From Methanofastidiosum sp. (GTDB taxonomy: Archaea > Methanobacteriota_B > Thermococci > Methanofastidiosales > Methanofastidiosaceae): a stretch of DNA of 64,000 bases. Location of the stretch: positions 830,796-894,795 of the forward strand of contig JAXGZJ010000001.1 in assembly GCA_040771805.1 (NCBI GenBank), in the 5' to 3' direction. Below the pieces are notes generated by a model that did no database searches, had not been told where the DNA came from, and saw only the letters and a list, made by a program, of their open reading frames with translations. A program made the position numbers and the translations under genes. How positions within the stretch are numbered: the first letter of the stretch is position 1; every line of letters starts with the position of its first letter. Shown piece after piece: positions 10,502 to 64,000 of the stretch.

Positions 10502-10554
10502 AAATCAAAAGGATAATTAAAGTTTATAAATGAAACTACAATAGATTATAATTA

Positions 10555-41121: not shown

Positions 41122-41344
41122 GAACTATGCATTTATGTTGTAATTTATAAACTTTGTTAAAACGTATGCTTTATTGTATAATTTATATTGAAATGATGGT
41201 ATCTCTGAGATCCTTATACTAAGATCATAGTATTCTGCATTATTCTAGAATTAGAAGAATCATTAAAACTATTTTTTTTAAGTATTTTAAACAAAGTATG
41301 TCCAAACTCAGAAAAATAGATTGGGCATTAGTTTGTAAAAAGAG

Positions 41345-41419
41345 TGCCGCGGGCCGGATTTGAACCAGCGGAATACCAGATCTTCAGTCTGGCGCCCTCC
41401 CAGGCTAGGCGACCGCGGC
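41345..41419 (-). tRNA. tRNA-Phe (anticodon GAA); CCA not encoded
   Basis: Hand-folded cloverleaf: 7-bp acceptor stem GCCGCGG/CCGCGGC, D-stem GCCT/GGGC, anticodon stem CCAGA/TCTGG with loop CTGAAGA, T-stem GCTGG/CCGGC with loop TTCAAAT. Confidence 0.85.
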
Positions 41420-41607
41420 TTAGCTAATAAAAAGTGAATCTTTTGGATAATATATAAACTTTTCCCATAATATTATTTTGCAGTATAATCCTATCCAAGT
41501 GATGCTTATTCCTAATTTGCACTAAGCATTGTATGAGATTTAATCTTTATCGTCAAAGTATGCAGCAAGTTAAATATGCACATATTAGCTTTGATATTTC
41601 AAGCAAC

Positions 41608-43394: not shown

Positions 43395-43406
43395 TCAATA
43401 CCTCCT

Positions 43407-44252: not shown

Positions 44253-45393
44253 TTGAGTCCATCCAGTCTAAAAGTTGAATTTCCTTTAGTCTCTGTGCTT
44301 GATTATCGTTTAATCCATAGAGCTCTTTGTGGTAGTCATTAACCCATTTGTTAACCTTTATATCACTGAATTTTTCAGGATATACAGTTTTTGCAGATAT
44401 AAGTAATATTGTAGGATAGTCAAGTTTAAAGTCTCCCCACCAAGTCAAAAGGCCAAAAGAACCTATTCTTCTATTTTTTACAGCGTTGACATTCTGCAAT
44501 GGTTTATATTTAGGGGCTGTACTTAATATGTTGATATCAGGCAATATAGAGTTGGTAGCAAGTATGATCACATCTGGATTCATGGTAATTATCTGCTCTG
44601 CTGACATTAATTGTGATTTGGATTCCCCATATACATTTTTTATGTTGCATATTTCTTCTGCAAACTTTGCGTCTCCGTAATTCTTACCCCAAACGGCACC
44701 TATACTATCATCTGTTTTCAGTCCAATATACATCACAGATGGCTTTTCAGAATCTTTGATGTCCTTAGTTCTATTATATACCATGTCCACATATTTCTTA
44801 GTAATGTCATGTATTTCTTTGGCACGTTTTTCCTTATTAAATACTTTTCCTAATATTATAATTCCTTCATATTGGGTATTCATTGTAGGATTGCTATACG
44901 CTCCGGGGGTATTAATTACTACAATGGGTATTTTAAGTTCATTTTCAATTCTATCCATTGCTTCTTTAGTTATTTCATTGTCTTTAATATATTCTGAGTT
45001 TGCCCAAAGGACTAAATCAGGTTTTACAGATATTAGAGTTTCAAAATTGAACCCCCCAAAGGTATAGCCTACATTTGGAAGCTCTATTATCTTAGGAAAT
45101 AGATATAAACTGTCCCTATCTTCTGCTTTTTCATTTTCTGAAGATAACATTCCACCACTTGCAACTATTTTATCTTGGACGCCCAAAGCAACTATGTTTT
45201 GTGTTATGAAGCCTTTATCAACAATAACAACTCTTTGAGGGTCAGAGGGAATCGTCACCGTCACTCCTCTCATATCAACTATTTCTTTCATGGCAATCTT
45301 CTGTGGTGAACTGGTATTTTGTACACATCCTAAAAAACTAAATGTTAAAAATAAAATCACCATAGTAATCAAAATATTATTTTTGTTTTTCAT
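44242..45393 (-). CDS. ABC transporter substrate-binding protein (cluster A-II/BtuF/FepB-like, probable lipoprotein)
   Basis: Signal peptide with lipobox-like FSFLGC; periplasmic binding protein 2-like. Confidence 0.75.
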   Translation of the reverse strand: MKNKNNILITMVILFLTFSFLGCVQNTSSPQKIAMKEIVDMRGVTVTIPSDPQRVVIVDKGFITQNIVALGVQDKIVASGGMLSSENEKAEDRDSLYLFPKIIELPNVGYTFGGFNFETLISVKPDLVLWANSEYIKDNEITKEAMDRIENELKIPIVVINTPGAYSNPTMNTQYEGIIILGKVFNKEKRAKEIHDITKKYVDMVYNRTKDIKDSEKPSVMYIGLKTDDSIGAVWGKNYGDAKFAEEICNIKNVYGESKSQLMSAEQIITMNPDVIILATNSILPDINILSTAPKYKPLQNVNAVKNRRIGSFGLLTWWGDFKLDYPTILLISAKTVYPEKFSDIKVNKWVNDYHKELYGLNDNQAQRLKEIQLLDWMDSNDF

Positions 45394-45520
45394 AGAATCT
45401 CCTTAATTTTTAGTGTTATTATAGTAGCACTAATTTAGAAAACGTGTTATTAATTATTTATAAAGTTTATGGTTTAATATATAGTTAAAGGACTATTTAC
45501 TCATCGAAATATTTATATAC

Positions 45521-45541
45521 TTGGATGGTGACGCCATCCAT
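45521..45541. promoter_or_regulatory. Palindromic candidate operator, copy 1 (TTGGATGGTGACGCCATCCAT)
   Basis: 19 of 21 positions identical to the perfect palindrome at 54857..54877; preceded by TATA-like ATTTATATAC and followed directly by the ATG at 45542. Confidence 0.45.
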
Positions 45542-45685
45542 ATGAACAATAAATGTATTATCTGTAAGTGTGAATTAAATAAGAGGACTTATATTATCTG
45601 CGAAGATTGTTTTGAAAAATGCATCTCTCAATTGGAATTAACTGATTTTCACAAAAATAGAGAGGCTATCTTTATTATGGATTAG
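45542..45685 (+). CDS. Small zinc-ribbon protein, 47 aa (not in ORF track)
   Basis: ATG...TAG ORF encoding MNNKCIICKCELNKRTYIICEDCFEKC... with CxxCKC-x9-CxxC; promoter-like TATA and palindrome just upstream. Confidence 0.35.
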   Translation: MNNKCIICKCELNKRTYIICEDCFEKCISQLELTDFHKNREAIFIMD

Positions 45686-45771
45686 GATGATAAAAGTAAT
45701 ATAAACAATGAAAAAGTTAATAAATAAACTATAATTCTTACCACAATGCAAAACACAAGAGGTAATTACCA

Positions 45772-45906
45772 TTGAAGAATGAAATCACGATAAATTTTCC
45801 AAAGGACATCAGAGAGTACTGCCCAAAATGTAAGTGTTACCTATATCCTGTAAAAGATCATATTTGCTACTTCTGCAAAAGTAAAACTATTCCCCATAAA
45901 GAATAA
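45772..45906 (+). CDS. Small zinc-ribbon protein paralog, ~44 aa (TTG start; not in ORF track)
   Basis: ORF encoding (M)KNEITINFPKDIREYCPKCKCYLYPVKDHICYFCKSK... with the same CxxCKC-x9-CxxC spacing; AGAGGT SD-like element 8 nt upstream. Confidence 0.3.
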   Translation: MKNEITINFPKDIREYCPKCKCYLYPVKDHICYFCKSKTIPHKE

Positions 45907-45912
45907 AAATAA

Positions 45913-46473
45913 TTAAGAATTTTTAAAAGAATTCTCTTCAAATTCCTTATGAATTTGCTGCATCCATTCAGGTATAGATATTTTGTCCTCAGGGTAAAAG
46001 TTTCTAACATACGGTTTGATATCAACTACAGGACTACCATCGACCGCATCCAGCCCCGTAACCTCTAAAACATTCCCTCTTATACCATGCAAACGGACAA
46101 CAGTCATAAGTATAGGATTTGGTCTTGCAGGGCTACATGTGGCAAATATACCTACCTTTGAAAAACATTCTCTTCCCATAGGATGTACTTTTGTCAAAGA
46201 TCGACTTTGCTCTGGAACTTTATGGGCCCAGTATAAAATTATAAGATGGGAATATTTTTCAACCCCTTCAAGGATATCTATGATATCATTATCAATAATA
46301 ATTTCTGATATTTCCTCATTGATTTGACGAATTTGTTTCATATTGGCTTTGTTCTGTTCCTTCATCTTTATTCCCTCATTTCCGGCAACAAGGGAGGGTT
46401 CATTATTGTTATTTCTTACAATACCAATCGGCCTTACTATCAAATTTCCTGCATTTTTATTATCTTTAATCAT
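45913..46473 (-). CDS. TsaA/YaeB (TrmO-like) family protein
   Basis: VRPIGIVRN N-terminus and RPNPILMTVV...VTGLDAVDGSPVVDIKPY core motifs. Confidence 0.6.
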   Translation of the reverse strand: MIKDNKNAGNLIVRPIGIVRNNNNEPSLVAGNEGIKMKEQNKANMKQIRQINEEISEIIIDNDIIDILEGVEKYSHLIILYWAHKVPEQSRSLTKVHPMGRECFSKVGIFATCSPARPNPILMTVVRLHGIRGNVLEVTGLDAVDGSPVVDIKPYVRNFYPEDKISIPEWMQQIHKEFEENSFKNS

Positions 46474-46513
46474 GTTTCAACCTTCTAACTCTATAGATAG
46501 ATTTTTATCAAAG

Positions 46514-47611
46514 TTATCTTATTCTTATTCCGTCCCCAGTTAATTTATTATATCTGCTCTTTGAACAAGGATAGCAATAATTTCCTCCGTTGCTTTTAGA
46601 TATCCTTGTAGCCATTACGTTTTCCTTACAACAATCACATAAAATGCTATCATATATTGGGGCATATTCTGGGATATCTGCCTTCACTTTTTTTATTGAA
46701 AAAAGGCTATCAAAGTCCATTTTAAGCATGTTAAACGAGACCTCTTTTCCATATTGTTTAAATAAAGAATAATCTTCTTCGTTTCCAGCCCTATCTCTTA
46801 CTACTTTATTAAATAATTCAAAATACTCAGGAAAGTTTTTTTCAAGACCATTTCTGTAATCAGGATTAACAGAAACTCTTATCCCATTGCCATCTCTTCT
46901 AGATAGTGTTACGGCATTTTTTCCAAAATCCCGATAAATAAGGGCATTATTTCCAAATGTACATCCAGTAACATATTGGACGCCATCTGACATGCAATTA
47001 TTTGCTTCAACAATAGCGATTACTTCTTCCATCCCATCTGAAATTTCTTTGATTTCATTCATCAGATAAGCGCTTGCCCTAACTCCAAGGGATAATCCCG
47101 GGCAATAGTGGCCATGAATTGTTCCTGCCGTAATGAGTAGTTTTTCTAAATCATTCTCAGCAATGTACCTAGTTATTTCTGATCTTGGATTGTTTTTTAG
47201 GTAGCTTAGATTTTCAGCTTCTTGACCCTTTTCATCAAGAAAAGCAGAGTACGGTTTTATATCAATAACAGGTGTTCCATCGATTGCGTCAAGTCCCTTT
47301 ACTAGAAGCTCGTTACCTTTTCTTTCCAATAGCTCTACCGTAGTTAGGCCTATATTTGTCGGCCTTCGTGGGCTTCTAGAAGCAAAAACACCTTTTACTT
47401 CGCCCCCATACCTAGGGCCAATAAGTTCAAAATCTTTAGAAAGATGAAAAACAAACATTACCTGGAGATATCTGCTCTCCTCTATCTTATATAGTCCATC
47501 TTCAAAATCTTTGTCTACTATGATTGTACTCTCTGTCTTTCTTAATATATTTGGGTCTACTTGCTCCCTAAAATTATTTTTTACTGTTCCTATCTTTTTA
47601 ATATGCTCCAT
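46514..47611 (-). CDS. Fusion protein: N-terminal TsaA/YaeB-like domain, FmdE-like domain, C-terminal zinc ribbon
   Basis: RRPTNIGLTTV...KGLDAIDGTPVIDIKPY (TsaA-like); HGHYCPGLSLGVRA (FmdE-like); CDCC...CYPC C-terminal cluster; start uncertain (track start 47680). Confidence 0.6.
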   Translation of the reverse strand: MEHIKKIGTVKNNFREQVDPNILRKTESTIIVDKDFEDGLYKIEESRYLQVMFVFHLSKDFELIGPRYGGEVKGVFASRSPRRPTNIGLTTVELLERKGNELLVKGLDAIDGTPVIDIKPYSAFLDEKGQEAENLSYLKNNPRSEITRYIAENDLEKLLITAGTIHGHYCPGLSLGVRASAYLMNEIKEISDGMEEVIAIVEANNCMSDGVQYVTGCTFGNNALIYRDFGKNAVTLSRRDGNGIRVSVNPDYRNGLEKNFPEYFELFNKVVRDRAGNEEDYSLFKQYGKEVSFNMLKMDFDSLFSIKKVKADIPEYAPIYDSILCDCCKENVMATRISKSNGGNYCYPCSKSRYNKLTGDGIRIR

Positions 47612-48374
47612 TATTTTTCCTCCCCACTGGAATAACAAACGGGTAGCCATCGTGCTCCTTAATATAGACATCCACACCATATACTTCTTTAATTAATTTT
47701 GGAGTAATTATATCGTGGCCTCCAACTGAATCAATCATTCCCCCTTTTAAAAAGATGAATTTGTCTGAAAATCTTAGGGCGGAATTAATATCATGCATTG
47801 TCATTATAACTGATACATCATGTCCATCCACAATTTCTGATAAGAGGTACAGTATTTCCTGCTGATTTTTAAGATCTAGACTTGATGTAGGTTCATCCAA
47901 TAATAGTATTTTTGGCTCTTGAACTATTGCTCTGGCTATTCCGACTTTTTGTAATTCTCCACCACTTAACTCATCTAAATACCTTAAAGAGAGATCTTCC
48001 ATGTTTAATTTTTTCATGGCAGAGTTAACTAATGAAATATCCTTGTTAGATACATCCCACTTTATATGGGGTTTCCTACCAAGTAAGATGGCATCAAATA
48101 CAGTTATCCTTACAGTTTCGTTTCTTTGTGGAACATAACCTAACTTCTTTGCTATTTCTATTCTTTTAATATTCATAATATCTTGATTCTCTACCAGTAT
48201 ACTTCCACCTTGTGGCCTTAGAATTCTATTTATGCATTTGAGAAGTGTAGTTTTGCCCACGCCATTTGGGCCTAATATACTTAAAATTTCATTCGACTCT
48301 AAATTAAAGTCTATTTGATTGAATATTTCTTTATTTTTATAACTAAATTTTAAATTAGATATTTCAAGCATCAT
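47598..48374 (-). CDS. ABC transporter ATP-binding protein (FepC/BtuD-type), second system
   Basis: Walker A GPNGVGKTT, signature LSGGELQ, Walker B LLLDEPTS. Confidence 0.85.
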   Translation of the reverse strand: MMLEISNLKFSYKNKEIFNQIDFNLESNEILSILGPNGVGKTTLLKCINRILRPQGGSILVENQDIMNIKRIEIAKKLGYVPQRNETVRITVFDAILLGRKPHIKWDVSNKDISLVNSAMKKLNMEDLSLRYLDELSGGELQKVGIARAIVQEPKILLLDEPTSSLDLKNQQEILYLLSEIVDGHDVSVIMTMHDINSALRFSDKFIFLKGGMIDSVGGHDIITPKLIKEVYGVDVYIKEHDGYPFVIPVGRKNNGAY

Positions 48375-49441
48375 CTTCTTCCTCCTTTTATCAATAGGAA
48401 GATAAAAATTGGTGCACCCATAAATGCTGTTAAAATTGCTACAGGTAAAACATGTGGGGCAACTATCAATCTGGCTGCAGTATCAGAAAGTGACAATAGT
48501 ATACCTCCCATTAGGATAGACCCTGGTATTAGAAAACGATTGTCGTCACCGATTAAGATTCTTACTATATGCGGACATACAAGCCCTACAAATCCAATAA
48601 CACCAAGGAAAGCTACAATAACTGCAGTAACAAGAGAGGAAACAATCATCCCTATTAGGCGAATTCTTGTGACATCTACGCCTAAACCTAAAGCAGTGTC
48701 ATCACCTGCGTCAATTGCATTATAGTTCCATCTATTTATGAAAAAGTATATTGCGGCCAATATTACTACAATTGATATTATGCTTAATTCTCGCCAATCG
48801 GCTCTTGCAACATCACCAAAAGACCAAAAAACAACAGCTGCTAACTGCACATCATCGGCAAAGAATTGAAGAAACATTGTTCCTGCTGTAAATAGGGACG
48901 ATAAAGCTACTCCTGCTAAGATCATTACTTCAGGTGAAGCTTTTTTCATATGGGCTATTCCCAATATGAACGCAGTTGCAAGTAGACAAAAGATAAATGC
49001 AACTATAGTTGTGGTATATGGATTATTGATTACTATGGCATCCATAGCTCTACTACGCATAGTTCCTGTACCCAAAATCATCACAGAAAATGCTGCACCA
49101 AATGCCCCGGCGTTAGAAATTCCTAGGGTAAATGGAGATGCCAATGGATTCCTTAAAATCGATTGCATTGCAACACCCGCAACACCGAGTCCAATCCCAG
49201 CAGCTACTCCCGTTAAAGCCTGAGGTAAACGAATATTCCATATAATTGTATGCCAAGTACTAGACTGGGCATTACCAATTAAAACTTTAAAAACCTCAGG
49301 TAATGGTATGTTTACTGCCCCCACAGAGACAGAAAATGCAATTGAAAATATTAAGAATAATAAACTACCAATTAAAAAAATCATTTTTTTCCATACATAA
49401 TTAAGATATCCTTCTGGCAATTCCGATTCATTTAAGTGCAT
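48371..49441 (-). CDS. ABC transporter permease (FecCD/BtuC family), second system
   Basis: Polytopic FecCD-like permease; overlaps the ATPase gene start. Confidence 0.85.
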   Translation of the reverse strand: MHLNESELPEGYLNYVWKKMIFLIGSLLFLIFSIAFSVSVGAVNIPLPEVFKVLIGNAQSSTWHTIIWNIRLPQALTGVAAGIGLGVAGVAMQSILRNPLASPFTLGISNAGAFGAAFSVMILGTGTMRSRAMDAIVINNPYTTTIVAFIFCLLATAFILGIAHMKKASPEVMILAGVALSSLFTAGTMFLQFFADDVQLAAVVFWSFGDVARADWRELSIISIVVILAAIYFFINRWNYNAIDAGDDTALGLGVDVTRIRLIGMIVSSLVTAVIVAFLGVIGFVGLVCPHIVRILIGDDNRFLIPGSILMGGILLSLSDTAARLIVAPHVLPVAILTAFMGAPIFIFLLIKGGRR

Positions 49442-49470
49442 CTTATTCCTCCCTTTGTAAAAAAATAAAA

Positions 49471-49491
49471 ATGTCTAGGTTTACTAGACAT
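49471..49491 (-). terminator. Intra-operon hairpin followed by a U-tract, between binding-protein and permease genes
   Basis: ATGTCTAG-GTTTA-CTAGACAT (8-bp stem) followed on the coding strand by TTTTATTTTTTT, then the GGAGG RBS of the permease. Confidence 0.35.
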
Positions 49492-50591
49492 CATATATCT
49501 AATTTTTTAAAGCCTATATTATTGAACTCAGAGTTTAATTCACTAAACACAGCTTTACCAAATAAAAATGTATAAATTTCGTCTGCTTTTTTAACTGGAT
49601 CTATATCTGAGAATTTTTCTGGATAAATAACTTTTCCGACGAAGTAAGCATCAGCTAAAACTGATCCTTGATTTGCATTATACCAATTATAGGGTATCAC
49701 TGCGTAGACTTCTCCAGATTTTACGGCACTTAATTTTTTATATGCTGAGTCCTTTTTCAATTCATCAATTGCTGTATCTGTTTCTAATTGTATTGTAGCA
49801 ATATCAACAAATAGTATGTCCGGATCCCACTCTACTATCTTTTCTTTAGCAACTTCTGTTCCTTGGCTCCCCAATGCTGAAGCAACGTTATTTGCATTTA
49901 CAAAGATAAATGGGGGGTAACCTGGCTCTGTTGAATGTAAACCGTGTGGGCCTGCCCTCGCCACTCCACCAATGTATACTGATTTTCTCTGGGATTCAGG
50001 TACATCCTTTGTCCTGTTGTTTAAATCTTCAATCCCCTTATCAAAGAAGGATATTACTTCTTCTACTCTAGCTTCTTTGTTCATTACTTTTGCCATAATT
50101 CGCCAGGTTTTATACATTTCACTCCTATTTTTACCAAGATCTCCATAGTTTAATGCAACTACTGGAATTCCAGTTTTAGTTTGAAGTTTATCGGCATCTT
50201 CAATTGTTGTTTGAACTTTGAATATTATTTGGGGATTCAAAGCAATTATTTTTTCGGGATCGTCTTTTCCACGAAACTCTCCAAATATTGGGTAGTCTCT
50301 AAATTGTCTATTTGCAATTGCATATGGTCTTGCATCAAACTTAGAAGTTCCTTTTTCAATGTCATCTACACCGACTATTTTATCGTGAGCTTGTAGATAA
50401 GTTAGGTACCTTAGGCACCCTGAACCTGAACAAATTACTTTAGTTGGATTTACAGGTACAGTTACTTCTCGTCCGAGCGAATCGGTTATTTTCATTGTTT
50501 TTTGTGAAGTATCCGTTGTGTTGCTAGTGCATCCTGCTGACAAAAACATTGCAGCTACTAACACTGCAATAATAAAAATATTTGCACACAT
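49491..50591 (-). CDS. ABC transporter substrate-binding protein (BtuF/FepB-like lipoprotein), second system
   Basis: Start placed at internal Met (MCANIFIIAVLVAAMFLSAGC, lipobox-like); track ORF extends to 50729. Confidence 0.7.
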   Translation of the reverse strand: MCANIFIIAVLVAAMFLSAGCTSNTTDTSQKTMKITDSLGREVTVPVNPTKVICSGSGCLRYLTYLQAHDKIVGVDDIEKGTSKFDARPYAIANRQFRDYPIFGEFRGKDDPEKIIALNPQIIFKVQTTIEDADKLQTKTGIPVVALNYGDLGKNRSEMYKTWRIMAKVMNKEARVEEVISFFDKGIEDLNNRTKDVPESQRKSVYIGGVARAGPHGLHSTEPGYPPFIFVNANNVASALGSQGTEVAKEKIVEWDPDILFVDIATIQLETDTAIDELKKDSAYKKLSAVKSGEVYAVIPYNWYNANQGSVLADAYFVGKVIYPEKFSDIDPVKKADEIYTFLFGKAVFSELNSEFNNIGFKKLDI

Positions 50592-50939
50592 TTTTTTATT
50601 TTTGATAAAAACACCTCCGCCAAATAGAATAAGTATTCTATTTATAAGTATTACGTTTTTTTGATACGTGCTACTATTTTTATAAAATCTATCTTTAATA
50701 ACACTTGATAAATTTTTCAATTGCAGCATTGATTCTGTTTCTAGCTTTACTTGATATACTAATTGTCAAAATTCTTTGTAAAATCTAAGTTATTTTCCTT
50801 CTCTATTTCTGAGTAAGGAGGATATAATTAATCAATGCAGTTATAGTCTTTTTCTATAAATATATGCTTTGTTGAATAATTCCAAACAAACGACAATTAT
50901 CTCTAACTTGCCCTTTCTTTACCTTTAGCTTTACACTAG

Positions 50940-51720
50940 CTGTTGCAGTTGGTCATCAGCAGAAATTCATCATCACTTCCTTTTGTGCCATGTCAAATCG
51001 TTTGGCGGTAGTTCCTTCGCCAAATGAGCGCTTGACCGCAGAGAAATATGATTCTATGCGCCACCGCTTGTCATATTCGTATTTCTCTTTCCATGAAATC
51101 TAGCCAATCTTTTTCACTTCCCACATTGACTTAGCACGCAGAGGCGACCTAAGGGGCGTGTTGAGACATTTTTTTGTATCTTTATTATTGAACTGCATTC
51201 TTTTTAGCGGCAATATCAACCATGTTTCTTGTGTCGTAGGCTCCGTCTGCTATAAGAACTTTGAAAGCTACCCCATCAGCTAAAAAATGCTCATTTAGCT
51301 ATCGTGGGCATCTCTATCTGTAACAACTATACCGATTAGTTTTCCTGTCTTAGCGTCGATGGCAGCATGCGCCTTTAGGTAGTTCTTATTTTTCCCGTAG
51401 AGGTAGTTTATCCAGCTCCCGGCATCAGTCATCTTAAATCCGGTGCTGTCGCTTACCACAGTAAGCTCTGAAACATCTTCTATCACCTCAAGCTCAAATT
51501 TCATCTGAAGTATTCTCCGTCAGATGGTGGCGTAGTCTGCCGACTTGATCTTAGGTGAATACTTGGATATAGCTTGAAGAAAGCCTTTGGTCTACCTACA
51601 CCTTAGCCCGCAGACTGTCCTTACAGTTGTTACAAATCTGATGAAAGATTCCTGGTAGGGGATATGATCTTCTGACCTTATCATTGTTCATTAGAGCTAG
51701 CTCTTTGTTCAATATATCGT
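50940..51720 (-). mobile_element. Remnant of an IS4/IS5-family insertion sequence; ends not defined
   Basis: GC-rich patch in an AT-rich background; transposase motifs found in three different frames. Confidence 0.5.
50956..51692 (-). pseudogene. IS5-like DDE transposase, disrupted by frameshifts and stops
   Basis: Reverse-strand translations give AIDAKTGKLIGIVVTDRDAHD, KVLIADGAYDT and YDKRWRIESYFSAVKRSFGE in different frames. Confidence 0.55.
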
Positions 51721-51744
51721 TTAAAAAATCAAAAGATTGATAAA

Positions 51745-53061
51745 CTACCACAATGACTTGCTTAGTATTTCTCTACTGTTAATAACTCTGCATTCTATAA
51801 CAAGGGAAGTTTCATTGACAAATGATTTTATTCGTTTTTCAGTATGTCCTACCATCCCTCCGCTTGTAAGGATAAGGCATTGTTTTCCAGACAATGAAGT
51901 CAAAATAGATTTATCAATAACGTTGGAAGTTACATCAAGGCTAATATTGTCCTTGCTACAAATAGATTTGCTTTTAGAGCCCATTGCTCCCACATATTGG
52001 ATCTTATATTCACCGATAATATTCTGGACTTCTTGAAAGTCATAAAAATCAGTATTATAGATATATATTCTTCCAATATTCTGATGATTGTGGAACTCAA
52101 TAATTGCATTGTTATCTTGGGACTTATAAAAAACAGTTCCCTTCTTAAAGTAGTGATCATTTGGAACATCGTTAAACTCAACTAGATCCCCAACTTTTTT
52201 GTCTGAAGAAATCTTCCTCCACTTTAAATTAGAAGGTTTTAAGAAACCGACTAATTCCAAAAGATTTTTCGGAGTTTTGCCGTCTGTGGCTAAATTTCTA
52301 TTTACAAGTTCATTATATATCTGAATTATAAGGGGAGTTTTAAGATGTGTTTTTTTAATTAGTTCCTTTTCTTTAAACAGCGTATCTGGAGTTCCCTGGC
52401 CAACTATCTTTCCGTCAGCCATTAAATAAACGTAATCAGACCATTGATAAGCCAGCTCGATATCATGGGTAGAAATTATTATTGTTTTGCCGTAGCTATT
52501 GAGCTCATTTAGTATGTCCATAACTTCATTGGCGCCTCTAGGGTCAAGATTAGACAGTGGCTCGTCCAAAACGATGATGTCAGGTTCCATTACAAGTATG
52601 CCTGCTATTGCAGCTCTTTTCTTTTGGCCACCACTTAAATGATGAGGGGATTTTTCTTTTATATGGAGGAGATCAACATAATCCAAAGCCAATTCAGTGT
52701 ACTTTTTAACCTTATCTTCATCCCATCCAAGATTCATAGGGCCAAACGCCACGTCCTGATAGAGAGTTGGTGCAAAAAGTTGATCATCCGGATTTTGGAA
52801 TACCATCCCAACTCTTTTTCTGATTTCAACTAGATTTTTACTGCTATATTTCATTTTTTCTCCATTAAATATAATCTCTCCTTCAGTTGGGGCATGAATC
52901 CCATTAAACATTAAAAAAAGAGTGGATTTTCCAGCTCCGTTTGGGCCTACAAAGGATATTTTTTTACCTGCCTCTATTCTGATATTTACCCCCTTGAGGG
53001 CCTCAAACCCATCTCCATAAGTATATCTGACGTTTTTAGCTACAATGATAGGATTAGTCAT
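51745..53061 (-). CDS. cbiO: Cobalt ECF transporter ATPase CbiO with a ~150-aa C-terminal extension
   Basis: Walker A GPNGAGKST, signature LSGGQKKR, Walker B IVLDEPLS; 438 aa, longer than a typical CbiO/EcfA. Confidence 0.85.
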   Translation of the reverse strand: MTNPIIVAKNVRYTYGDGFEALKGVNIRIEAGKKISFVGPNGAGKSTLFLMFNGIHAPTEGEIIFNGEKMKYSSKNLVEIRKRVGMVFQNPDDQLFAPTLYQDVAFGPMNLGWDEDKVKKYTELALDYVDLLHIKEKSPHHLSGGQKKRAAIAGILVMEPDIIVLDEPLSNLDPRGANEVMDILNELNSYGKTIIISTHDIELAYQWSDYVYLMADGKIVGQGTPDTLFKEKELIKKTHLKTPLIIQIYNELVNRNLATDGKTPKNLLELVGFLKPSNLKWRKISSDKKVGDLVEFNDVPNDHYFKKGTVFYKSQDNNAIIEFHNHQNIGRIYIYNTDFYDFQEVQNIIGEYKIQYVGAMGSKSKSICSKDNISLDVTSNVIDKSILTSLSGKQCLILTSGGMVGHTEKRIKSFVNETSLVIECRVINSREILSKSLW

Positions 53062-53849
53062 AAAATCACTCCAATTCCCACATTTCTCGTAGTATATGTT
53101 AAGATTATTATAAATAAAAGATACAATATTGACACCACTGCTTCTCTCAAAGATATAGGTTTGGTGTCTTTAAAAATAGATATTTTTCCATCATAGCATC
53201 TTGAATTCATGGCAATGTAAAGCTTTTCCCCTTGATCCCAAGTCCGTATAAATAATGTGCTTGCAAGTATGGCAAGAGAATGCATCCAATTCTTAAAAGA
53301 GATGTATCCCATTCTCATATTTTGAGCATCTTCCATTTTCATTGCCAAATCCAAGAATACAAATATATACCTATATATCAGCATGGATAATTCAATAAAT
53401 ATTTCAGGTAATTTTAACTCTTTTAAAACATAAAATAGATGTGTTACAGGTGTAGACAGGGATAAGAAGTAAAGGCAACTCAGTCCAGAAATTGAGCGTG
53501 AAAAAACAAGGACCGCCATATTCAGCCCCCCCATAGTTATTGATAATTTATAATTAAAGATATTAAATGAAATAATATCGGGGCCTGTTCCAAAAAAGAA
53601 TAATATAATTAAAATTCCAAATATCAAAAAAGTACCTGGTATTAATAATAACTTAAGATAAATTTTGACAGGTACTTTATTGAGATATATAATCGCTAAA
53701 CCAAAAAAAAGTGAAATAATAATAGGAGTAACTGGTGATGTGGACATTACCCCTATTATCATAGAAGACAAGGCCAGCAATACTTTAAGCTCAGCATTTT
53801 TGTATCTAAGTGGGCTAATTATGGCATAGTCTTCTAATATCGTATGCAC
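53058..53849 (-). CDS. cbiQ: Cobalt ECF transporter T component CbiQ
   Basis: Polytopic membrane protein between cbiN and cbiO; overlaps cbiO start. Confidence 0.8.
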   Translation of the reverse strand: MHTILEDYAIISPLRYKNAELKVLLALSSMIIGVMSTSPVTPIIISLFFGLAIIYLNKVPVKIYLKLLLIPGTFLIFGILIILFFFGTGPDIISFNIFNYKLSITMGGLNMAVLVFSRSISGLSCLYFLSLSTPVTHLFYVLKELKLPEIFIELSMLIYRYIFVFLDLAMKMEDAQNMRMGYISFKNWMHSLAILASTLFIRTWDQGEKLYIAMNSRCYDGKISIFKDTKPISLREAVVSILYLLFIIILTYTTRNVGIGVIL

Positions 53850-53873
53850 AGATTGTACACCTTAATGCCATTT

Positions 53874-54143
53874 TTATTGTTTGCCTTTGTAAAATCCTAG
53901 GAAATACCCTATTATTAGTCCACCTATGGCTGCCTGGAGACTAAAGAATAAACTTTCAATCTCTCCGCTTGGCGGTTCCCATAAAGGTTGTACTATAGGT
54001 TCAAATTCTGGATTTAACTCAGCAATTACATCCCCAGCCTCATCGTCAGCTCCGCCCCATTCAAAACTGCCGGTTGAAGATACAACTACAAATGCAACTG
54101 CAAATATTAGGATTGAGATAATTGCTATTATTTCTCCTTTCAT
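53874..54143 (-). CDS. cbiN: Cobalt transport protein CbiN
   Basis: 89 aa, two TM helices flanking an acidic loop. Confidence 0.8.
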   Translation of the reverse strand: MKGEIIAIISILIFAVAFVVVSSTGSFEWGGADDEAGDVIAELNPEFEPIVQPLWEPPSGEIESLFFSLQAAIGGLIIGYFLGFYKGKQ

Positions 54144-54841
54144 GCTTTTGCACCTCTGCCTAATACTTCTTTTACTGTTTCTTTTGGCATTACCTTCATC
54201 TTTACGAGTATATCTGATCTAACCTGTAAAACATACTTTAAAAGTAGTGCAGTGAGAACACCTTCCATTAAAGCAAGTGGTACTTGTGTAACGGCAAATA
54301 CTGTGGCGAAAGAAGCAAATGAAGTCATGAATCCACCTTCTGCAGCAGGAAATGCCAAGGCGAGTTGAATTGAGGTCATTACATACGTAAACCAGTCAGC
54401 AAATGTTGCAGCAAAAAAAGCGGCTATGTAAAAGTTGATTTTGACCTTCATTAGTGCTTTATAGATAATATATCCAAATATAGGGCCAACTATACCCATC
54501 GAAAATGTGTTTGCCCCGAGTGTTGTAAATCCTCCATGAGCCAAAAATAATGCTTGGTATATCAAAGATATGAAAGACAAGACCGCAGTTACGAATGGAC
54601 CAAAAATAATTGCTCCTAGTGCTGTTCCTGTAGGGTGTGAACAACTGCCAGTGACCGAGGGTAGTTTCAGCGAAGATAAGACAAATATGTAAGCACCTGC
54701 TACAGCCAATAGTGGCAATATTTCTCTGTTTTGCTTGACTAACTTATTGATTTGATAGATTCCATATATTATAAATGGAACTGCCAAAACAAACCAAATA
54801 ATCCACCAAGGAGATGGTAGAAATCCTTCCATTATATGCAT
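54140..54841 (-). CDS. cbiM: Cobalt ECF transporter S component CbiM
   Basis: N-terminal MHIMEGFLP typical of CbiM; polytopic; overlaps cbiN start. Confidence 0.85.
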   Translation of the reverse strand: MHIMEGFLPSPWWIIWFVLAVPFIIYGIYQINKLVKQNREILPLLAVAGAYIFVLSSLKLPSVTGSCSHPTGTALGAIIFGPFVTAVLSFISLIYQALFLAHGGFTTLGANTFSMGIVGPIFGYIIYKALMKVKINFYIAAFFAATFADWFTYVMTSIQLALAFPAAEGGFMTSFASFATVFAVTQVPLALMEGVLTALLLKYVLQVRSDILVKMKVMPKETVKEVLGRGAKA

Positions 54842-54856
54842 TTATTTTCCTCCTTT

Positions 54857-54877
54857 ATGGATGGTGACACCATCCAT
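54857..54877. promoter_or_regulatory. Perfect 21-bp palindrome (10-bp arms, 1-nt centre) over the predicted cbiMNQO transcription start: candidate operator
   Basis: ATGGATGGTG-A-CACCATCCAT lies 16-36 nt upstream of the cbiM ATG, between an AT-rich TATA-like element and the GGAGG RBS. Confidence 0.5.
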
Positions 54878-54934
54878 TAACAAATAACAACATTTTTTAT
54901 TTATAAATATATTGGTTATTGGTAAGAATTCATT

Positions 54935-55684
54935 TTATAAACAAAGATTATTTAATCTGTCTATTATCTTTGATTTTTCTGAATATATGGCACCGTAATA
55001 TATCTTGGGTCTTTCAATCAATATCACTTTAATGCCATCTTCAATTGCAGCTTCAATTTTGTTTCTAGTCCCGCCCTCTTCTCCGCCATCTTTAGTTACC
55101 ACAAATTCAATGTCAAATTGCCTGTAAATTTCTCTGTTAAACTCTTTAAAAAAAGGTCCTTGAATAGCAATTATATTTTTAGGGGAAAATCCAAGTTTTT
55201 CACATTTTTCCAAAACGACTGACGAAGGTAAAACCCTTACAAAAAGTCTATTTATACCAAGTTTAGAAAATACTTCAAGATTATTGCTTCCAATTGTAAG
55301 CATTATATTGCCAGTCGTATCCTTTAACACCTCTGCAGCCTCATTATAACTTTTTACTCTCACTACTCCACTAATCTCAGTTTCTAATCTCTCATATCTA
55401 AGATAAGGGATGTTTTTATCCTTGGCCACCTTAATTGCAGTTCTTGATATATTCTCTGCATATGGATGGCTCGCATCAACAATGCATTTGATATTATTGT
55501 GCTCAATTACACCAATCATATCATTATAGTCCTTTTTTCCATAAATAACAGTTAAATTTGGGTGTTCTCCCAATAGATCTTTACCATACTTTGTAGCGGT
55601 ACTGGCAAGTACCTTAAAATTGCTGTTTAGGATATCTTTAGCTAAATCCCTTCCATCCTTTGTCCCGCCTATTAAAAGAATCAT
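54935..55684 (-). CDS. cbiJ: Cobalt-precorrin-6A reductase
   Basis: N-terminal ILLIGGTKDGRDLA typical of CbiJ/CobK. Confidence 0.7.
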   Translation of the reverse strand: MILLIGGTKDGRDLAKDILNSNFKVLASTATKYGKDLLGEHPNLTVIYGKKDYNDMIGVIEHNNIKCIVDASHPYAENISRTAIKVAKDKNIPYLRYERLETEISGVVRVKSYNEAAEVLKDTTGNIMLTIGSNNLEVFSKLGINRLFVRVLPSSVVLEKCEKLGFSPKNIIAIQGPFFKEFNREIYRQFDIEFVVTKDGGEEGGTRNKIEAAIEDGIKVILIERPKIYYGAIYSEKSKIIDRLNNLCL

Positions 55685-56415
55685 ATGTTATATCCTCTTG
55701 GGGTTATCATGAAATTATCCTTTACATATGTTCTGGAGTTTCCTATAATTATCAGTGTGCTCATGTCAATTTCATGTTCAAGCATTTCATTGATGTCTGT
55801 GATAATAACTTTTTGACCATCTCTCATTGCATTTTTAACTATCCCCACGGGAGTATTAAGATCCTTATAGGACAATAGAATTTCTCTCGTCTTGAATATC
55901 TGCTCTCTTCTTCCTTTGCTTTTTGGATTATAGATGCAGATGACAAAATCACCTTTTCCAGCACAATGGATTCGATTTTCTATTATCTCCCATGGAATTA
56001 AAAGGTCGCTGAGGCTAATCACAACATGATCTTCCGTAATTGGTGAACCCAATAACGATGCTGCAGCGAGATAAGATGTAACTCCCGGAACTACCTCAAC
56101 ATAAATCTCTTCTTTTGTTTTTGTAATAAGCTCAAGTAGTATTCCAGCCATCCCATAAATGCCGGGGTCACCACTACTTATTAAAGAAACTACTTTTCCC
56201 TCTTTTGCATAATCAATACACTGATTACATCTTTCTACTTCCTTAGTCATCCCAGAAGAAATATATTCTTTTTCTGGGAAAAAAGGTTTGATTAATTTTA
56301 TATAACTCGAATAACCAACTATAATATCAGAATCTTTTAAGGAATTCTTGGCTCTTGTGGTGAGGTAGTCATAATCACCTGGCCCTATCCCAACAACAAA
56401 TATTTTACCTTTCAT
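55681..56415 (-). CDS. cbiH: Cobalt-precorrin-3B C17-methyltransferase
   Basis: Tetrapyrrole methylase fold, VVGIGPGD and ADIIVGYSSYI motifs. Confidence 0.75.
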   Translation of the reverse strand: MKGKIFVVGIGPGDYDYLTTRAKNSLKDSDIIVGYSSYIKLIKPFFPEKEYISSGMTKEVERCNQCIDYAKEGKVVSLISSGDPGIYGMAGILLELITKTKEEIYVEVVPGVTSYLAAASLLGSPITEDHVVISLSDLLIPWEIIENRIHCAGKGDFVICIYNPKSKGRREQIFKTREILLSYKDLNTPVGIVKNAMRDGQKVIITDINEMLEHEIDMSTLIIIGNSRTYVKDNFMITPRGYNI

Positions 56416-57437
56416 ATTTCCCCCCAGATAGCTATTGTTATGCCATCATAAGATTTCTTTTTTGAGATAAATCTGCCTTTCTTACTAGAAGACAGGTACG
56501 CCACGGGTTCACAAACTGCCCCAACGCCAATCGATTTTTTAACAAAATCCGACTTTTCAAACTTATCTTCTATTTTTAAGATATCTTCTTTTTTGATATA
56601 TTCTAAAGACAAGTTAAAATATTTAACAGCATCGGATAGACCTTTATCTTCTTTTTTAATATCTATAGTTGCAATTTTTTTAATGCTTCTCGGGTCAATA
56701 TTGTTAGCTTCTAATTCATTTTTTATTGCAGAAATAATACTTTCGGCCAATATGCCTTTCTTTGCACCAAGCCCCAATACTATGTTTTTTGGAACTAATC
56801 TAACGTGTGGTTTTGGCACACTTATGATTTTATTTGAAACAATTATAATTCCAGAGTATTCATCTATTTCTTCCAAGTTATTGATTTTTTTGATATTATC
56901 AGGAATAGAGAAATTAATTGGTATCTCTGTAAAAATTCCAATCTTATAACCGTTTACAATATTAGAAGTGATCTCTTTGGCAGTGTTCATGTTATCAATT
57001 TCACAGCCCAAGAGCATTGCAAGATTATCAACTGCCATGGATCCAATTACATCGGAGGCTGTTGTGATTACAGGTTCAGAACCTATTTTTTCTGAGAGAA
57101 GTCTTGCGGCATCATTGGCCCCGCCCAGATGCCCAGACAATAAGCTTATGACATATTTTCCTTTTTCATCCATGACTAGGATTCCTGGATCTTGAGTTTT
57201 ATTAATAATTAGATTAGCTATTGAACGAACCACTATACCTGATGCCATGATAAAAACTAGGATATCATATTCATGAAATATTTTAGAAATAAACTCATTA
57301 AAATTGCTGCCTGTTGGCCTTGATTGATCTGAACTCCATTTGGGATTACTATAAAGGTCAACATTATCAATTACACTTTTTATTTTTAAACCAAGTTCAA
57401 GAGCTCCTTTTGTCAGAGTAATGACTGCCCATCTCAC
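56412..57437 (-). CDS. cbiG: Cobalt-precorrin-5A hydrolase
   Basis: Size and position between cbiF and cbiH in a tightly overlapping cbi operon; assignment is by context. Confidence 0.65.
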   Translation of the reverse strand: MRWAVITLTKGALELGLKIKSVIDNVDLYSNPKWSSDQSRPTGSNFNEFISKIFHEYDILVFIMASGIVVRSIANLIINKTQDPGILVMDEKGKYVISLLSGHLGGANDAARLLSEKIGSEPVITTASDVIGSMAVDNLAMLLGCEIDNMNTAKEITSNIVNGYKIGIFTEIPINFSIPDNIKKINNLEEIDEYSGIIIVSNKIISVPKPHVRLVPKNIVLGLGAKKGILAESIISAIKNELEANNIDPRSIKKIATIDIKKEDKGLSDAVKYFNLSLEYIKKEDILKIEDKFEKSDFVKKSIGVGAVCEPVAYLSSSKKGRFISKKKSYDGITIAIWGEI

Positions 57438-58193
57438 TTAAGTAGCACCCCTATATTCGTGGCTAAAGGATTTATCATAGAGTTTTGACCTTTCATAATC
57501 GGAAGATAAAAAGTCTCCAACTAGTATAATTGCAGTCTTCTTAATCCCGGCTTTTTTTACAATGCCAACAATATTCCCCAGAGTCCCTCCCAGAATTTTT
57601 TGATCCTTCCATGTGGCTTTGTAAACAACTGCAACGGGGGTTGAACCATCATAATTTTTTAAAAGTTTTTTTACAACATCTTCAATCATAGAAACTGATA
57701 AAAATATTGCCATTGATGCCCTATGTGAAGATAGTTTTTCTAAGTCTTCCTTCTCAGGAACCTCTGTTCTCCCACTTATTCGGGTACAGATAATGGTCTG
57801 TGAAACATTTGGTAAAGTAAATTCCTTTTTCAAAACTGCGGCTGCTGCAACAAATGAACTTACACCAGGTATAACTTCATATTCAATCCCATCTTCCTCT
57901 AAAAGGTCCATCTGCTCCTTTATTGCACCATATATACTTGGGTCTCCCGTGTGAACCCTTGCAACTACTTTACCCTCTAAGACATTTTTTTTGATGACGT
58001 CTATAATTTCTTCAAGATTCATCATTGCACTATCATAGACTAAAGAATCAGACTTCCTACTGCTAAGTATTTCTTTATTCACTAAAGACCCGGCATATAT
58101 AATAACGTCGGCACTATCTATTATCTTTTTACCTTTTATAGTTATTAGGTCAGGGTCTCCTGGGCCAGCACCAATAAAAAATACTTTAGTCAA
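57438..58193 (-). CDS. cbiF: Cobalt-precorrin-4 C11-methyltransferase
   Basis: FIGAGPGDPDLITIKG and IIYAGSLV motifs. Confidence 0.8.
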   Translation of the reverse strand: MTKVFFIGAGPGDPDLITIKGKKIIDSADVIIYAGSLVNKEILSSRKSDSLVYDSAMMNLEEIIDVIKKNVLEGKVVARVHTGDPSIYGAIKEQMDLLEEDGIEYEVIPGVSSFVAAAAVLKKEFTLPNVSQTIICTRISGRTEVPEKEDLEKLSSHRASMAIFLSVSMIEDVVKKLLKNYDGSTPVAVVYKATWKDQKILGGTLGNIVGIVKKAGIKKTAIILVGDFLSSDYERSKLYDKSFSHEYRGAT

Positions 58194-61865: not shown

Positions 61866-62752
61866 CTCAAGCCATTATTTAATATATCTTCAATCATTTT
61901 GTAATTAAGTTCTTTTTGTGATAAATATAAAAAGTTATCAATATTTTCAATCCAAATATTTCTGATATCCTCTGTATTACAGTTTATTTGTGAGGAAATA
62001 TTTTTCATACCCAGACTATCCTCTTCAGGGAACATAAAATTATGGTAAGACAACACGCCCAAGGTAGGCACCCTAGTTATTTTTTCAAGTTGGATTATTC
62101 CGCTTGCCAGTATGGAACGTTCTCCTCTAAATTTATTAATTATAAATCCTTTAACATATTTCTTATGTTCGGCGGGGAGAAGAGAAAAAGTTCCATACAA
62201 TCCGGCGAATACTCCACCGATATCTATATCGCCAACAATAATTACTGGGGATTTTGTGATTTCTGCTGTTTTCATATTAGCTATGTCATACTTGGAAATA
62301 TTAATCTCAACAGGTGAACCTGACCCCTCACAAATGACTATGTCATATTTTTTTGAAAGATTTAAGTAGCAGTCATGTATTTCCTTTAATAATTCCGCTC
62401 TAATGTTTTCCATTTCAGATTTCTTAAAATCCCCCAATGGTTTTCCTTTAAGAATAATCTGATATGAACTATTCCCCTTTGGCTTTAGTAGAATTGGATT
62501 CATATCATATTCAGGTTCTATGTTAGAAACCCATGCTTGGAAACTCTGGGATATGCTTATTTCATGGCCTTTATCTGTGATGAAGGAGTTTAGGGATAAA
62601 TTTTGAGCTTTGAATGGTGCAACTGAAAATCCTTTTTTATAAAAATACCTACATAATAAAGCTGTTAGAATACTTTTCCCAGCTCCTGATGTTGCTGCCT
62701 GGACCATTAAGGATAAGCTCATGGTGAATCCTCCAAGCCAATAATAGTGCAA
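61862..62752 (-). CDS. CobQ/CbiP-like ATPase-domain-only paralog (no glutamine amidotransferase domain)
   Basis: P-loop MVQAATSGAGKS, VAPFKAQNLSLNS and MNPILLKP motifs of the cobyric acid synthase N-domain; ORF ends before any GATase motifs. Confidence 0.6.
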   Translation of the reverse strand: MHYYWLGGFTMSLSLMVQAATSGAGKSILTALLCRYFYKKGFSVAPFKAQNLSLNSFITDKGHEISISQSFQAWVSNIEPEYDMNPILLKPKGNSSYQIILKGKPLGDFKKSEMENIRAELLKEIHDCYLNLSKKYDIVICEGSGSPVEINISKYDIANMKTAEITKSPVIIVGDIDIGGVFAGLYGTFSLLPAEHKKYVKGFIINKFRGERSILASGIIQLEKITRVPTLGVLSYHNFMFPEEDSLGMKNISSQINCNTEDIRNIWIENIDNFLYLSQKELNYKMIEDILNNGLS

Positions 62753-64000
62753 AGTTGATGCATATCTATATTTTCTTCAAAAGTTTTCGCTAGCTTCTCA
62801 AGGCTTAAATCTATTACATGATTATAGTCAAAGTATGTCTCTTTAGTTGTATCTATTTTCTTAGATATCAAACTTAAAAAATATTTTCTAAATGAAGGTA
62901 AATCAAATATGCCATGTATATATGTTCCCATTACTTTGAGATTAGTATCTATGCAACCTTCAAAATGTGTCCCGTTAACATCGTATATTTGAAAAATTGG
63001 TTTATTTCCATGTGTTATTGTTTTACCTGTATGGATTTCATAGCCTCGGACAAGGCCATCCCCTACTCTGTATTCTTCGAGGACTTTACCATTCACCTGT
63101 ACAGTTTTTTTATCATATAAGTCAAAGTAAGTAGAAACATCTAGAAGATCCAGGCCTTCGTACTCTGCTTCGCCTTCGCCTTCCATGCCTTTGTCAATAA
63201 TTTTTTTACCAAGCATTTGGTATCCGCCACATATTCCAATTATGGGGATAGAGCCTGACCTTTTTTTTATTGATTCAAAGAATCCTTTTTGTTTTAACCA
63301 TTTTAAATCTTCAACGGTATTTTTAGTTCCTGGGATAATAATTGCATCGACCTTCTTGACTTTTGTTGGATCATCAATAAAAATCACTGAAACATTTTTC
63401 TCTAAATCTAGTGCATCAAAATCTGTAAAATTAGATATCCTTGGAAGTTTGATTACACCTATTAAAATTTTTGAACTGTCCATCTCTTCTGACTTTATAA
63501 ACATTGAATCTTCCATTGGAAGATTAAGCTCTATATGTGGAACAATGCCCAAAACTGGGACACCGACTAATCTTTCAATTTCTTCTATTCCGTTATGAAG
63601 AGAAGATTTATCTCCCCTTAGATTATTTATTATTACTCCTTTGAACCGTTTCCTATCTTTATCATGAAGTAAGTTCAATGTTCCATAGATATATGCAAAA
63701 GATCCACCCCATTCTATATTGACAACTAATATACATGGAGCGTCTGCAATCTCCGCAGTTTTCATATTTGCTATTTCACTATCCCTTATGTTAATTTCTG
63801 TCGGACTTCCTGCTCCTTCGATTACAACGACATCATTTAATCTTCTAAGAAAATGGAGATTGCTCCTTACAATTTCAAGGCCTTTTGACCTTGTAAAGGA
63901 ATAATACTCTTCAACGTCCATATCTTTGTAAGGTTTCCCCTCAATTACAACTTGAGATACGTTGTCCTTTTTCGGTTTCAACAGGATAGGATTCATGTAT
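62719..64000 (-). CDS. cobQ: Cobyric acid synthase-like amidotransferase (CobQ/CbiP or CbiA family), 5'-truncated by the window edge
   Basis: MNPILLKP...VIEGAGSP ATPase-domain motifs plus C-terminal GATase motifs (PRISNFTDFD, GICGGYQMLG, H-containing YIHGIF); P-loop region lies beyond 64000. Confidence 0.7.
   Translation of the reverse strand, partial: YMNPILLKPKKDNVSQVVIEGKPYKDMDVEEYYSFTRSKGLEIVRSNLHFLRRLNDVVVIEGAGSPTEINIRDSEIANMKTAEIADAPCILVVNIEWGGSFAYIYGTLNLLHDKDRKRFKGVIINNLRGDKSSLHNGIEEIERLVGVPVLGIVPHIELNLPMEDSMFIKSEEMDSSKILIGVIKLPRISNFTDFDALDLEKNVSVIFIDDPTKVKKVDAIIIPGTKNTVEDLKWLKQKGFFESIKKRSGSIPIIGICGGYQMLGKKIIDKGMEGEGEAEYEGLDLLDVSTYFDLYDKKTVQVNGKVLEEYRVGDGLVRGYEIHTGKTITHGNKPIFQIYDVNGTHFEGCIDTNLKVMGTYIHGIFDLPSFRKYFLSLISKKIDTTKETYFDYNHVIDLSLEKLAKTFEENIDMHQLCTIIGLEDSP

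Follow-up and report, generated by a model that had tools for sequence, protein, structure and literature searches.

How might an archaeon without the bacterial cobalamin riboswitch regulate its acquisition of cobalt and corrinoids? The question is raised by a 64,000-nucleotide stretch of DNA from Methanofastidiosum sp. (contig JAXGZJ010000001.1, positions 830,796 to 894,795), here called the window, in which a perfect 21-bp palindrome at 54857-54877 lies before the cobalt transporter operon cbiMNQO. Archaea make and use much cobamide, and corrinoid methyltransferases are indispensable to methyl-reducing methanogens, Methanofastidiosa among them. To our knowledge, archaea do not have B12 riboswitches, and we know of no archaeal regulator of cobalt or B12 uptake that has been characterised. 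The initial annotation proposed the palindrome as a candidate protein operator that would control cbiMNQO in response to cobalt or corrinoid, a proposal supported here by the conservation of the element, its recurrence at related genes, the lack of a riboswitch and its geometry relative to the predicted TATA box. Judged from sequence, the palindrome is very probably the operator of a dimeric repressor that controls the acquisition of cobalt and corrinoids. The predicted regulon would comprise CbiMNQO, a T-AA'-S transporter of the energy-coupling factor (ECF) type, a surface-layer (S-layer)/DUF4430 protein with its partner of ~970 amino acids (aa), and a small operon of two zinc-ribbon open reading frames (ORFs), ORF1 and ORF2.

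The palindrome at the cbiM promoter

The forward strand at 54857-54877 reads ATGGATGGTGACACCATCCAT or, written as arms, ATGGATGGTG-A-CACCATCCAT, a perfect 10-1-10 palindrome without strand. The core of this first putative operator copy, GGATGG-N5-CCATCC, occupies 54859-54875. The putatively regulated operon, cbiMNQO (51745..54841, minus strand), is composed of cbiM (54140-54841), cbiN (53874-54143), cbiQ (53058-53849) and cbiO (51745-53061), and is preceded by the genes cbiF-G-H-J (58193..54935, minus strand) and a gap of 93 bp. In gene orientation, this gap holds a TATA-box candidate read from the sequence (TTTATAAA; 54907..54900, minus strand), 22 nucleotides (nt), the palindrome, the three nucleotides AAA, a GGAGG ribosome-binding site (RBS; 54853..54849, minus strand) and a further 7 nt before the cbiM ATG at 54841. 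A TATA-like element stands at the same distance from the palindrome in the orthologous loci L001 and L020, and transcription of cbiM is predicted to begin at about the base where the palindrome does. The extent, sequence and 10-bp arms that the initial annotation had given for the palindrome are therefore exact, and its placement 16-36 nt upstream of the cbiM start, between a TATA-like element and the GGAGG motif, is confirmed when read in the orientation of cbiM and the whole cbi cluster, which lie on the minus strand.

CbiM scores 295.9 bits against the NCBIfam model TIGR00123 (cbiM), above its equivalog cut-off, as the cobalt S component. Matches to the Pfam families CbiM and ABC_tran were obtained in the window itself, and those to CbiN and CbiQ from the orthologous locus L001. 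The window CbiM is 100% identical to a protein annotated in Candidatus Methanofastidiosa, and thus the rules of archaeal promoters apply. A scan of the whole window at the Rfam gathering threshold returned only a tRNA-Phe and no cobalamin riboswitch (RF00174), in keeping with the earlier argument that the riboswitch is bacterial and that a protein operator is plausible here.

Taken alone, the palindrome is unremarkable. Two perfect palindromes with arms of at least 10 bp and loops of 0-5 nt were observed in the window, against a mean of 1.09 under a first-order Markov null, and because about one is expected in an AT-rich window of this kind, the case rests on recurrence and conservation. The near-identical copy that the initial annotation had placed at 45521-45541 is present (TTGGATGGTGACGCCATCCAT, again without strand), with two mismatches in 21 positions and an exact 17-bp core at 45523-45539. 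Across 100 dinucleotide shuffles of the window there were no matches to the 21-mer within three mismatches, and the chance expectation for an exact core is 64000/4^12, or 0.004 per window. The half-site sequence (TGGATGG or CCATCCA) is present 13 times in the window; the nine outside the two palindromes are, by their coordinates, at no evident promoter, and the sole one of these read in sequence, at 15637, lies inside a MoaD/ThiS-like ORF.

Loss of the motif from orthologous cbiM promoters, which the initial annotation had named as telling against an operator, is not what is seen. The palindrome is kept at 20/21 positions in L001-L004, where CbiM is 98% identical, and in L020, which belongs to a different Methanofastidiosum species, with flanking intergenic DNA that is 78-90% identical. 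Between the window and L001, the 21-mer differs only at its central base (20/21), compared with 56/72 identical positions in the intergenic flanks and 278/300 in cbiM coding DNA; the palindrome is thus more strongly conserved than the non-coding DNA that surrounds it. Orthologues of CbiM at 69% identity, found in other, GC-rich lineages, have no motif in their promoters, which marks the element as lineage-specific.

Recurrence at related promoters

When species genomes were scanned with the pattern TGGATGGYGNCRCCATCCA, one genome per species, at least 119 stretches matched. Among the matches listed, most are from GC-rich bacteria and often inside genes (a NifU-like gene, for example), as chance predicts, and those from Methanofastidiosum or Methanofastidiosales (L020, L026, L077, L105 and L109, with L105 labelled 'Thermococci archaeon') lie at promoters in five of five cases. 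A scan of metagenomes returned 111 stretches, 24 of them low in GC, and 16 of these 24 represent the same promoter contexts: 13 of the ORF1 type, two of cbiM and one that is new. Two further low-GC stretches with the same 19-mer were set aside as coming from unrelated organisms, one (L172, 426-445) lying within an inverted repeat with arms of ~33 bp and the other (L208, 13140-13158) flanked by an A-run and a T-run in the manner of a bidirectional terminator.

In the new context, seen in L205, two sites share the intergenic region between divergent genes, one standing before a gene for a CbiQ-family ECF T component and one before that for a secreted S-layer-like protein with a DUF4430 domain. 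A relaxed-core scan of 264 kb of low-GC loci yielded no copies with one mismatch, and the divergent pair was found again in L136, L152 and L163, in flanking DNA that had not been picked on account of it. The layout is most fully seen in L136, where an operon of ORF1, a middle ORF and ORF2 is convergent with an ECF S-AA'-T operon, which in turn is divergent from the DUF4430 gene and a gene for the surface protein of ~970 aa. Four classes of promoter in Methanofastidiosum-like contigs accordingly carry the core, namely those of cbiMNQO, ECF T-AA'-S, S-layer/DUF4430 and ORF1-ORF2 (45542-45906 in the window). Nor is the motif scattered over many unrelated loci, the other outcome that the initial annotation had considered: the further copies stand at promoters of ECF/CbrT-like, DUF4430 and small zinc-ribbon operons.

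Among solved structures, the ECF S unit comes nearest to chain A of 6FNP (E = 1.4e-9), which is the vitamin-B12 transporter ECF-CbrT (PMC5997447). DUF4430 is known as the C-terminal domain of transcobalamins (PMC4350170), and the DUF4430 protein itself gives a weak, non-significant match to transcobalamin-1. We infer that the ECF T-AA'-S operon, with its CbrT-like S unit, encodes a corrinoid importer. The promoter of the cbi biosynthesis operon, which lies just past the window and was retrieved as L238, is without the motif even at three mismatches, and the element would thus govern acquisition rather than synthesis.

Because most sites had been found by pattern, further loci were selected through the similarity of their proteins. 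Homologues of the DUF4430 protein number 25, all Methanofastidiosa-like, and seven loci were retrieved through DUF4430 proteins 56-81% identical, one of these loci having a GC content of 44%. The exact core is present at both divergent promoters in all seven loci (14/14 promoters). Sites of the ORF1 type were also found wherever that region was included, exact in L246 and L247 and with one mismatch in L241. Together, the 101 kb of these loci contain 16 exact cores, against about 0.006 expected, and no exact core outside a promoter.

Proposed mode of action, candidate regulators and alternatives

The half-sites GGATGG and CCATCC are invariant in all 25 oriented sites compared, the flanking T and A are nearly constant, and the central five nucleotides vary, with A, C or T as the central base in gene orientation. 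The centres of the half-sites are about 11 bp apart, or roughly one helical turn. Invariant half-sites around a variable 5-nt centre point to two half-sites contacted by protein, and hence to a homodimeric factor. With TATA boxes predicted from sequence, the sites fall into two arrangements: those at ORF1, ecfT and most DUF4430 promoters abut the TATA-like element, beginning 0-2 nt after it, and those at cbiM in all three lineages and at the DUF4430 promoters of L205 and L242 begin 17-22 nt after it. Each of the roughly 40 sites either falls in the interval from the TATA-like element to the start codon or covers the predicted start. Sites that abut the TATA-like element would cover about -22 to -2, and the distal sites about -2 to +20.

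In archaea, factors bound at or after the TATA box block the recruitment of transcription factor B (TFB) and RNA polymerase, and characterised activators bind upstream of the B recognition element (BRE) and TATA box. The position of the sites, downstream of TATA or over the predicted start, therefore suggests a repressor. In the mechanism proposed, a homodimeric transcription factor would bind (T)GGATGG and CCATCC(A) when cobamide or Co2+ is sufficient, and the bound protein would prevent recruitment of TFB and RNA polymerase, so that transcription is repressed and uptake is shut off. A cobamide or corrinoid is, by a modest balance of probability, the effector; Co2+ is a distinctly weaker possibility.

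The window itself offers no convincing regulator gene. In the relatives, a protein of 200 aa, combining a PH0730-like/CggR-like winged helix with DUF4443, is encoded on the same strand as the DUF4430 operon and just downstream of it, and the gene is in place at six of six loci where the region is visible. In L244, for example, it occupies 7825-8427 (protein 7825-8424), and a PadR-family gene follows at 9911-10517. The protein is a full-length homologue of Pyrococcus horikoshii PH0730 (PDB 2p8t; E = 4.3e-14), whose family has been listed only as a winged helix-turn-helix (wHTH) family (PMC6316755). The gene has a conserved promoter of its own in L243-L247 (CAAACAAAAGTAATATATATTAACA), and no such gene was found in the window. 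By synteny, this wHTH-DUF4443 protein, encoded beside the transporter genes that it would control, is the best candidate for the regulator, tentative as the assignment is. It is possible, though doubtful, that the PH0730-like protein and the motif together form the long-missing archaeal protein counterpart of the B12 riboswitch, with DUF4443 as a new sensor domain for corrinoid or cobalt and its dimer repressing cobalt and corrinoid uptake from GGATGG-N5-CCATCC. More unusual yet would be a variant in which the zinc-ribbon proteins ORF1 and ORF2 themselves act as sensor or co-regulator. No gene of the TrmB family was found near the sites.

Several observations weigh against the repressor reading or its parts. 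The orthologous cbiM promoter of L005 has a degraded palindrome, on a contig covered at 1.3x whose genes are broken. The positive loci all come from a single narrow lineage, and their conservation could partly reflect short divergence times, but the flanks of the conserved sites do diverge. The invariance of the half-sites arises in part by construction, most sites having been found by pattern, which is offset by the loci chosen through their proteins. A corrinoid is the putative substrate of the ECF S unit, whose only NCBIfam match is sub-threshold and to the folT family. Unlike typical bacterial B12 regulons, that proposed here does not extend to the promoter of the cbi biosynthesis operon. 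As for the regulator, the promoter of the PH0730-like gene in L243-L247 is without the motif; a PadR-family gene, divergent from an ORF of 62-63 aa and absent from the retrieved part of L243, is equally syntenic; and the synteny of the PH0730-like gene is seen among close relatives only.

Of the alternatives, that which survives best retains the operator and replaces its effector, assigning the site to a classical metal sensor whose signal would be Co2+ (or Ni2+) instead of a corrinoid; such a reading is possible, if doubtful. CbiMNQO is a metal importer, a biosynthesis promoter devoid of the motif is as expected if metal acquisition alone were controlled, and the tiny Cys4 proteins, which are the other targets found consistently, might bind metal. 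Most sites, however, precede the CbrT-like ECF transporter and the transcobalamin-like DUF4430 protein, which points to corrinoid uptake. The window does contain an ArsR/SmtB-like gene (19282-19593), but it was rejected as the regulator, since it is 26-35 kb away from the sites, scores under the NCBIfam cut-off and has no motif close by. A sensor of the NikR type is not a good fit either. NikR operators have half-sites 11-16 nt apart, as in GTATGA-N16-TCATAC, in contrast to the 5-nt spacer and unrelated half-sites seen here. The about 30 window proteins scanned included none with a NikR domain (RHH with NikR_C).

An element acting at the level of RNA is improbable. It would take the form of a 5'-terminal stem-loop, or of a short leader ORF beginning at the ATG of the palindrome (MDG[VD]TIH...), or both, and would affect stability or translation. 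If transcribed, the palindrome would form a hairpin of 7-9 bp with about -12 kcal/mol and z of about -2.3 to -2.8, and at promoters of the cbiM type the predicted start coincides with its first base. In every class, moreover, the reading frame of the palindrome ATG either continues in phase into the true start or ends in a stop codon that exactly adjoins (TAAATG) or overlaps (ATGA) that start. Against this, sites of the ORF1, ecfT and most DUF4430 promoters, lying 0-2 nt after TATA, would be upstream of the predicted start and outside the transcript, and the ORF1 site has TTG in place of ATG in the window, L136 and L152. The stem never covaries, its inner positions changing without compensation (GCG-A-CAC, for example), and the hairpin excludes the RBS. 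A terminator is likewise disfavoured, since the stem is followed by AAAGGAGG rather than a T-run and a terminator scan makes no call. CbiM requires a Met-His N-terminus as a metal ligand, making an in-frame extension of CbiM unlikely to be functional, and the regularity of phase may be explained as selection that keeps an unavoidable operator ATG harmless when it is transcribed.

The frame pattern of the palindrome ATG was seen in the window (54857-54841, with the product MDGVTIHKGGK and then a stop), L001, L020, L136, L152 and L205. A 245-aa database model of CbiM, P0002, starts inside the palindrome; given the need for Met-His, this start is probably mis-called.

Slightly less probable again is a site for an activator or a specialised initiation factor. 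The direction of regulation is read from position, which leaves room for such a factor, but the characterised archaeal activators bind upstream of BRE/TATA and the roughly 40 sites here lie downstream. A chance palindrome, or a remnant of a dispersed repeat or mobile element with no regulatory role, is scarcely credible: a window of this composition should contain about one perfect palindrome with 10-bp arms, and many unrelated bacterial genomes carry the 19-mer by chance, mostly within genes, but recurrence and conservation here are confined to promoters of related genes (with the 16 cores in 101 kb far above expectation), only the 17-21-bp core is common to the promoter classes, there is no shared flanking repeat such as a miniature inverted-repeat transposable element would leave, and all archaeal copies are at promoters.

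The zinc-ribbon operon and the surroundings of the cbi genes

The target linked most consistently to the motif is ORF1 (45542..45685, plus strand), an unannotated protein of 47 aa with a Cys4 (CxxC...CxxC) zinc ribbon. Its TATA box (TTTATATA; 45512..45519, plus strand) lies 1 nt upstream of the second 21-mer, which fills the space from TATA to the ORF1 ATG and ends at the base preceding that ATG. Transcription is predicted to start at or near the ATG and to give a leaderless mRNA. The same arrangement of TATA, palindrome and ATG is present in about 15 further contigs, and the ORF1 promoter block AGAAATATTTATATA is conserved across species. ORF1 is followed by the co-transcribed ORF2 (45772..45906, plus strand), a zinc-ribbon protein of 44 aa (CPKC...CxFC) whose start codon, TTG, overlaps with the stop of a middle ORF of 39 aa (MLRIEI...VVIIEE), the latter kept in most species and degenerate in the window and the L152 lineage. 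Operons of this type occur also in L026, L105, L109, L129, L136, L139, L152, L167 and L168, and the ORF1 pattern M[DNS]NKCIIC...C.[ED]C[YF]E is conserved at 11 loci. Judged by this conservation, ORF1 and ORF2 are real genes. A homologue search with ORF1 returned one protein, P0121, ORFs this small being seldom called.

Even permissive Pfam settings gave ORF1, the middle ORF and ORF2 only sub-threshold matches to generic zinc ribbons and no family, and lent no support to an AbrB/SpoVT-like motif that had been considered in ORF2. Single-sequence AlphaFold models, with a mean pLDDT of 57 for ORF1 and 60 for ORF2, are too poor for fold comparison. A conserved block upstream of the ORF1 promoter was set aside as simply promoter DNA of tRNA-Phe(GAA), a gene that in most relatives diverges from the ORF1 promoter at a distance of ~110 nt. 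In the window, a cluster of 4 kb is inserted between tRNA-Phe (41344-41419) and the ORF1 promoter (the 41344-45520 region), encoding an ABC ATPase (41608-42381), a FecCD permease (42378-43394), a methyltransferase (43407-44252) and a Peripla_BP_2 protein (44242-45393).

Beyond ORF2, the window at 45913-51750 contains a Peripla_BP_2-FecCD-ATPase operon co-transcribed with genes for a TrmO_N protein (45913-46473) and a TrmO_N+FmdE fusion (46514-47680). L241 and L246 have this block too, downstream of their ECF operons. The window lacks the ECF/DUF4430 part, and between the block and cbiO it has a remnant of a DDE transposase (about 51295-51750), which suggests a rearrangement mediated by an insertion sequence. 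Within the block, a second perfect palindrome with 10-bp arms (AAATAGAATAAGTATTCTATTT, 50622-50643) immediately follows a TATA box (CTTATAAA) and stands ~30-50 nt upstream of the likely true start (MCANIF..., a lipoprotein signal) of a BtuF-like gene. It is partly kept in L246 (GAATACCTATTC) and degenerate in L241, and may be the operator of another regulator.

In cbiMNQO itself, CbiO is 438 aa long, with an ABC domain that ends near residue 210 and a C-terminal portion of ~200 residues without a Pfam match; its length is similar (437 aa) in a GC-rich orthologue, L006. This C-terminal portion may be a regulatory (trans-inhibition) domain. At the far end of the window, the ORF at 62719-63996 is the C-terminal part of a gene for 609 aa that runs off the window (L238, 6672-8501) and joins a cysteine-rich 'zf-like' domain (PF04071) to a CobQ/CbiA-type amidotransferase. 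Further on, cbiA is the first gene of the cbi operon and diverges from cobA/BtuR-cobT.

Comparison with known systems

The analysis yields a sharply defined putative operator, a compact and coherent regulon, and candidate regulators, first among them a family whose structure has been solved (PDB 2p8t). A conserved zinc-ribbon operon that has no annotation emerges as a likely part of cobalt and corrinoid homeostasis, and some database models of CbiM (245 aa) probably start wrongly, inside the putative operator. A search of the searchable literature found no description of the motif, the regulon or a cognate factor. In 2003, Rodionov et al. (J Biol Chem 278:41148) reportedly proposed a 'CBL-box', a candidate operator of a hypothetical archaeal B12 regulator, in work said to predate the genomes of Methanofastidiosa. 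The likeness is one of concept, a protein operator in place of the B12 riboswitch at archaeal cobalamin-related genes, without a comparison of consensus sequences, and the present motif may correspond to that idea.

Among other archaeal proteins, those of 44-47 aa encoded by ORF1 and ORF2 resemble Halobacterium Brz and the CPxCG micro-proteins of Haloferax in being small Cys4 zinc ribbons, with ORF2 also containing a CPxC motif, but they differ in having no detectable sequence family. The form of the operator has a closer parallel. Methanofastidiosales are placed next to Thermococci, and in Thermococcales the glycolytic motif TATCAC-N5-GTGATA of TrmBL1 (Tgr) is likewise a 6-5-6 inverted repeat and lies at or downstream of TATA, as the sites here are predicted to do, although its half-site sequence and its regulon differ from those described here. 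As with the similar archaeal operators of Phr, MDR1 and NrpR, such a position gives repression through blocked polymerase recruitment.

In function, the nearest counterpart is the bacterial cobalamin riboswitch regulon (RF00174), which also controls uptake genes of the cbiMNQO, ECF-CbrT and DUF4430 types and presumably shuts them off when the cofactor is sufficient. The riboswitch is a structured leader RNA of ~200 nt, whereas the element described here is a DNA palindrome of 17-21 bp at the promoter, and the biosynthesis operon promoter is not included in its regulon. Interest in the finding would be higher should the PH0730/DUF4443 family prove to be a corrinoid sensor.

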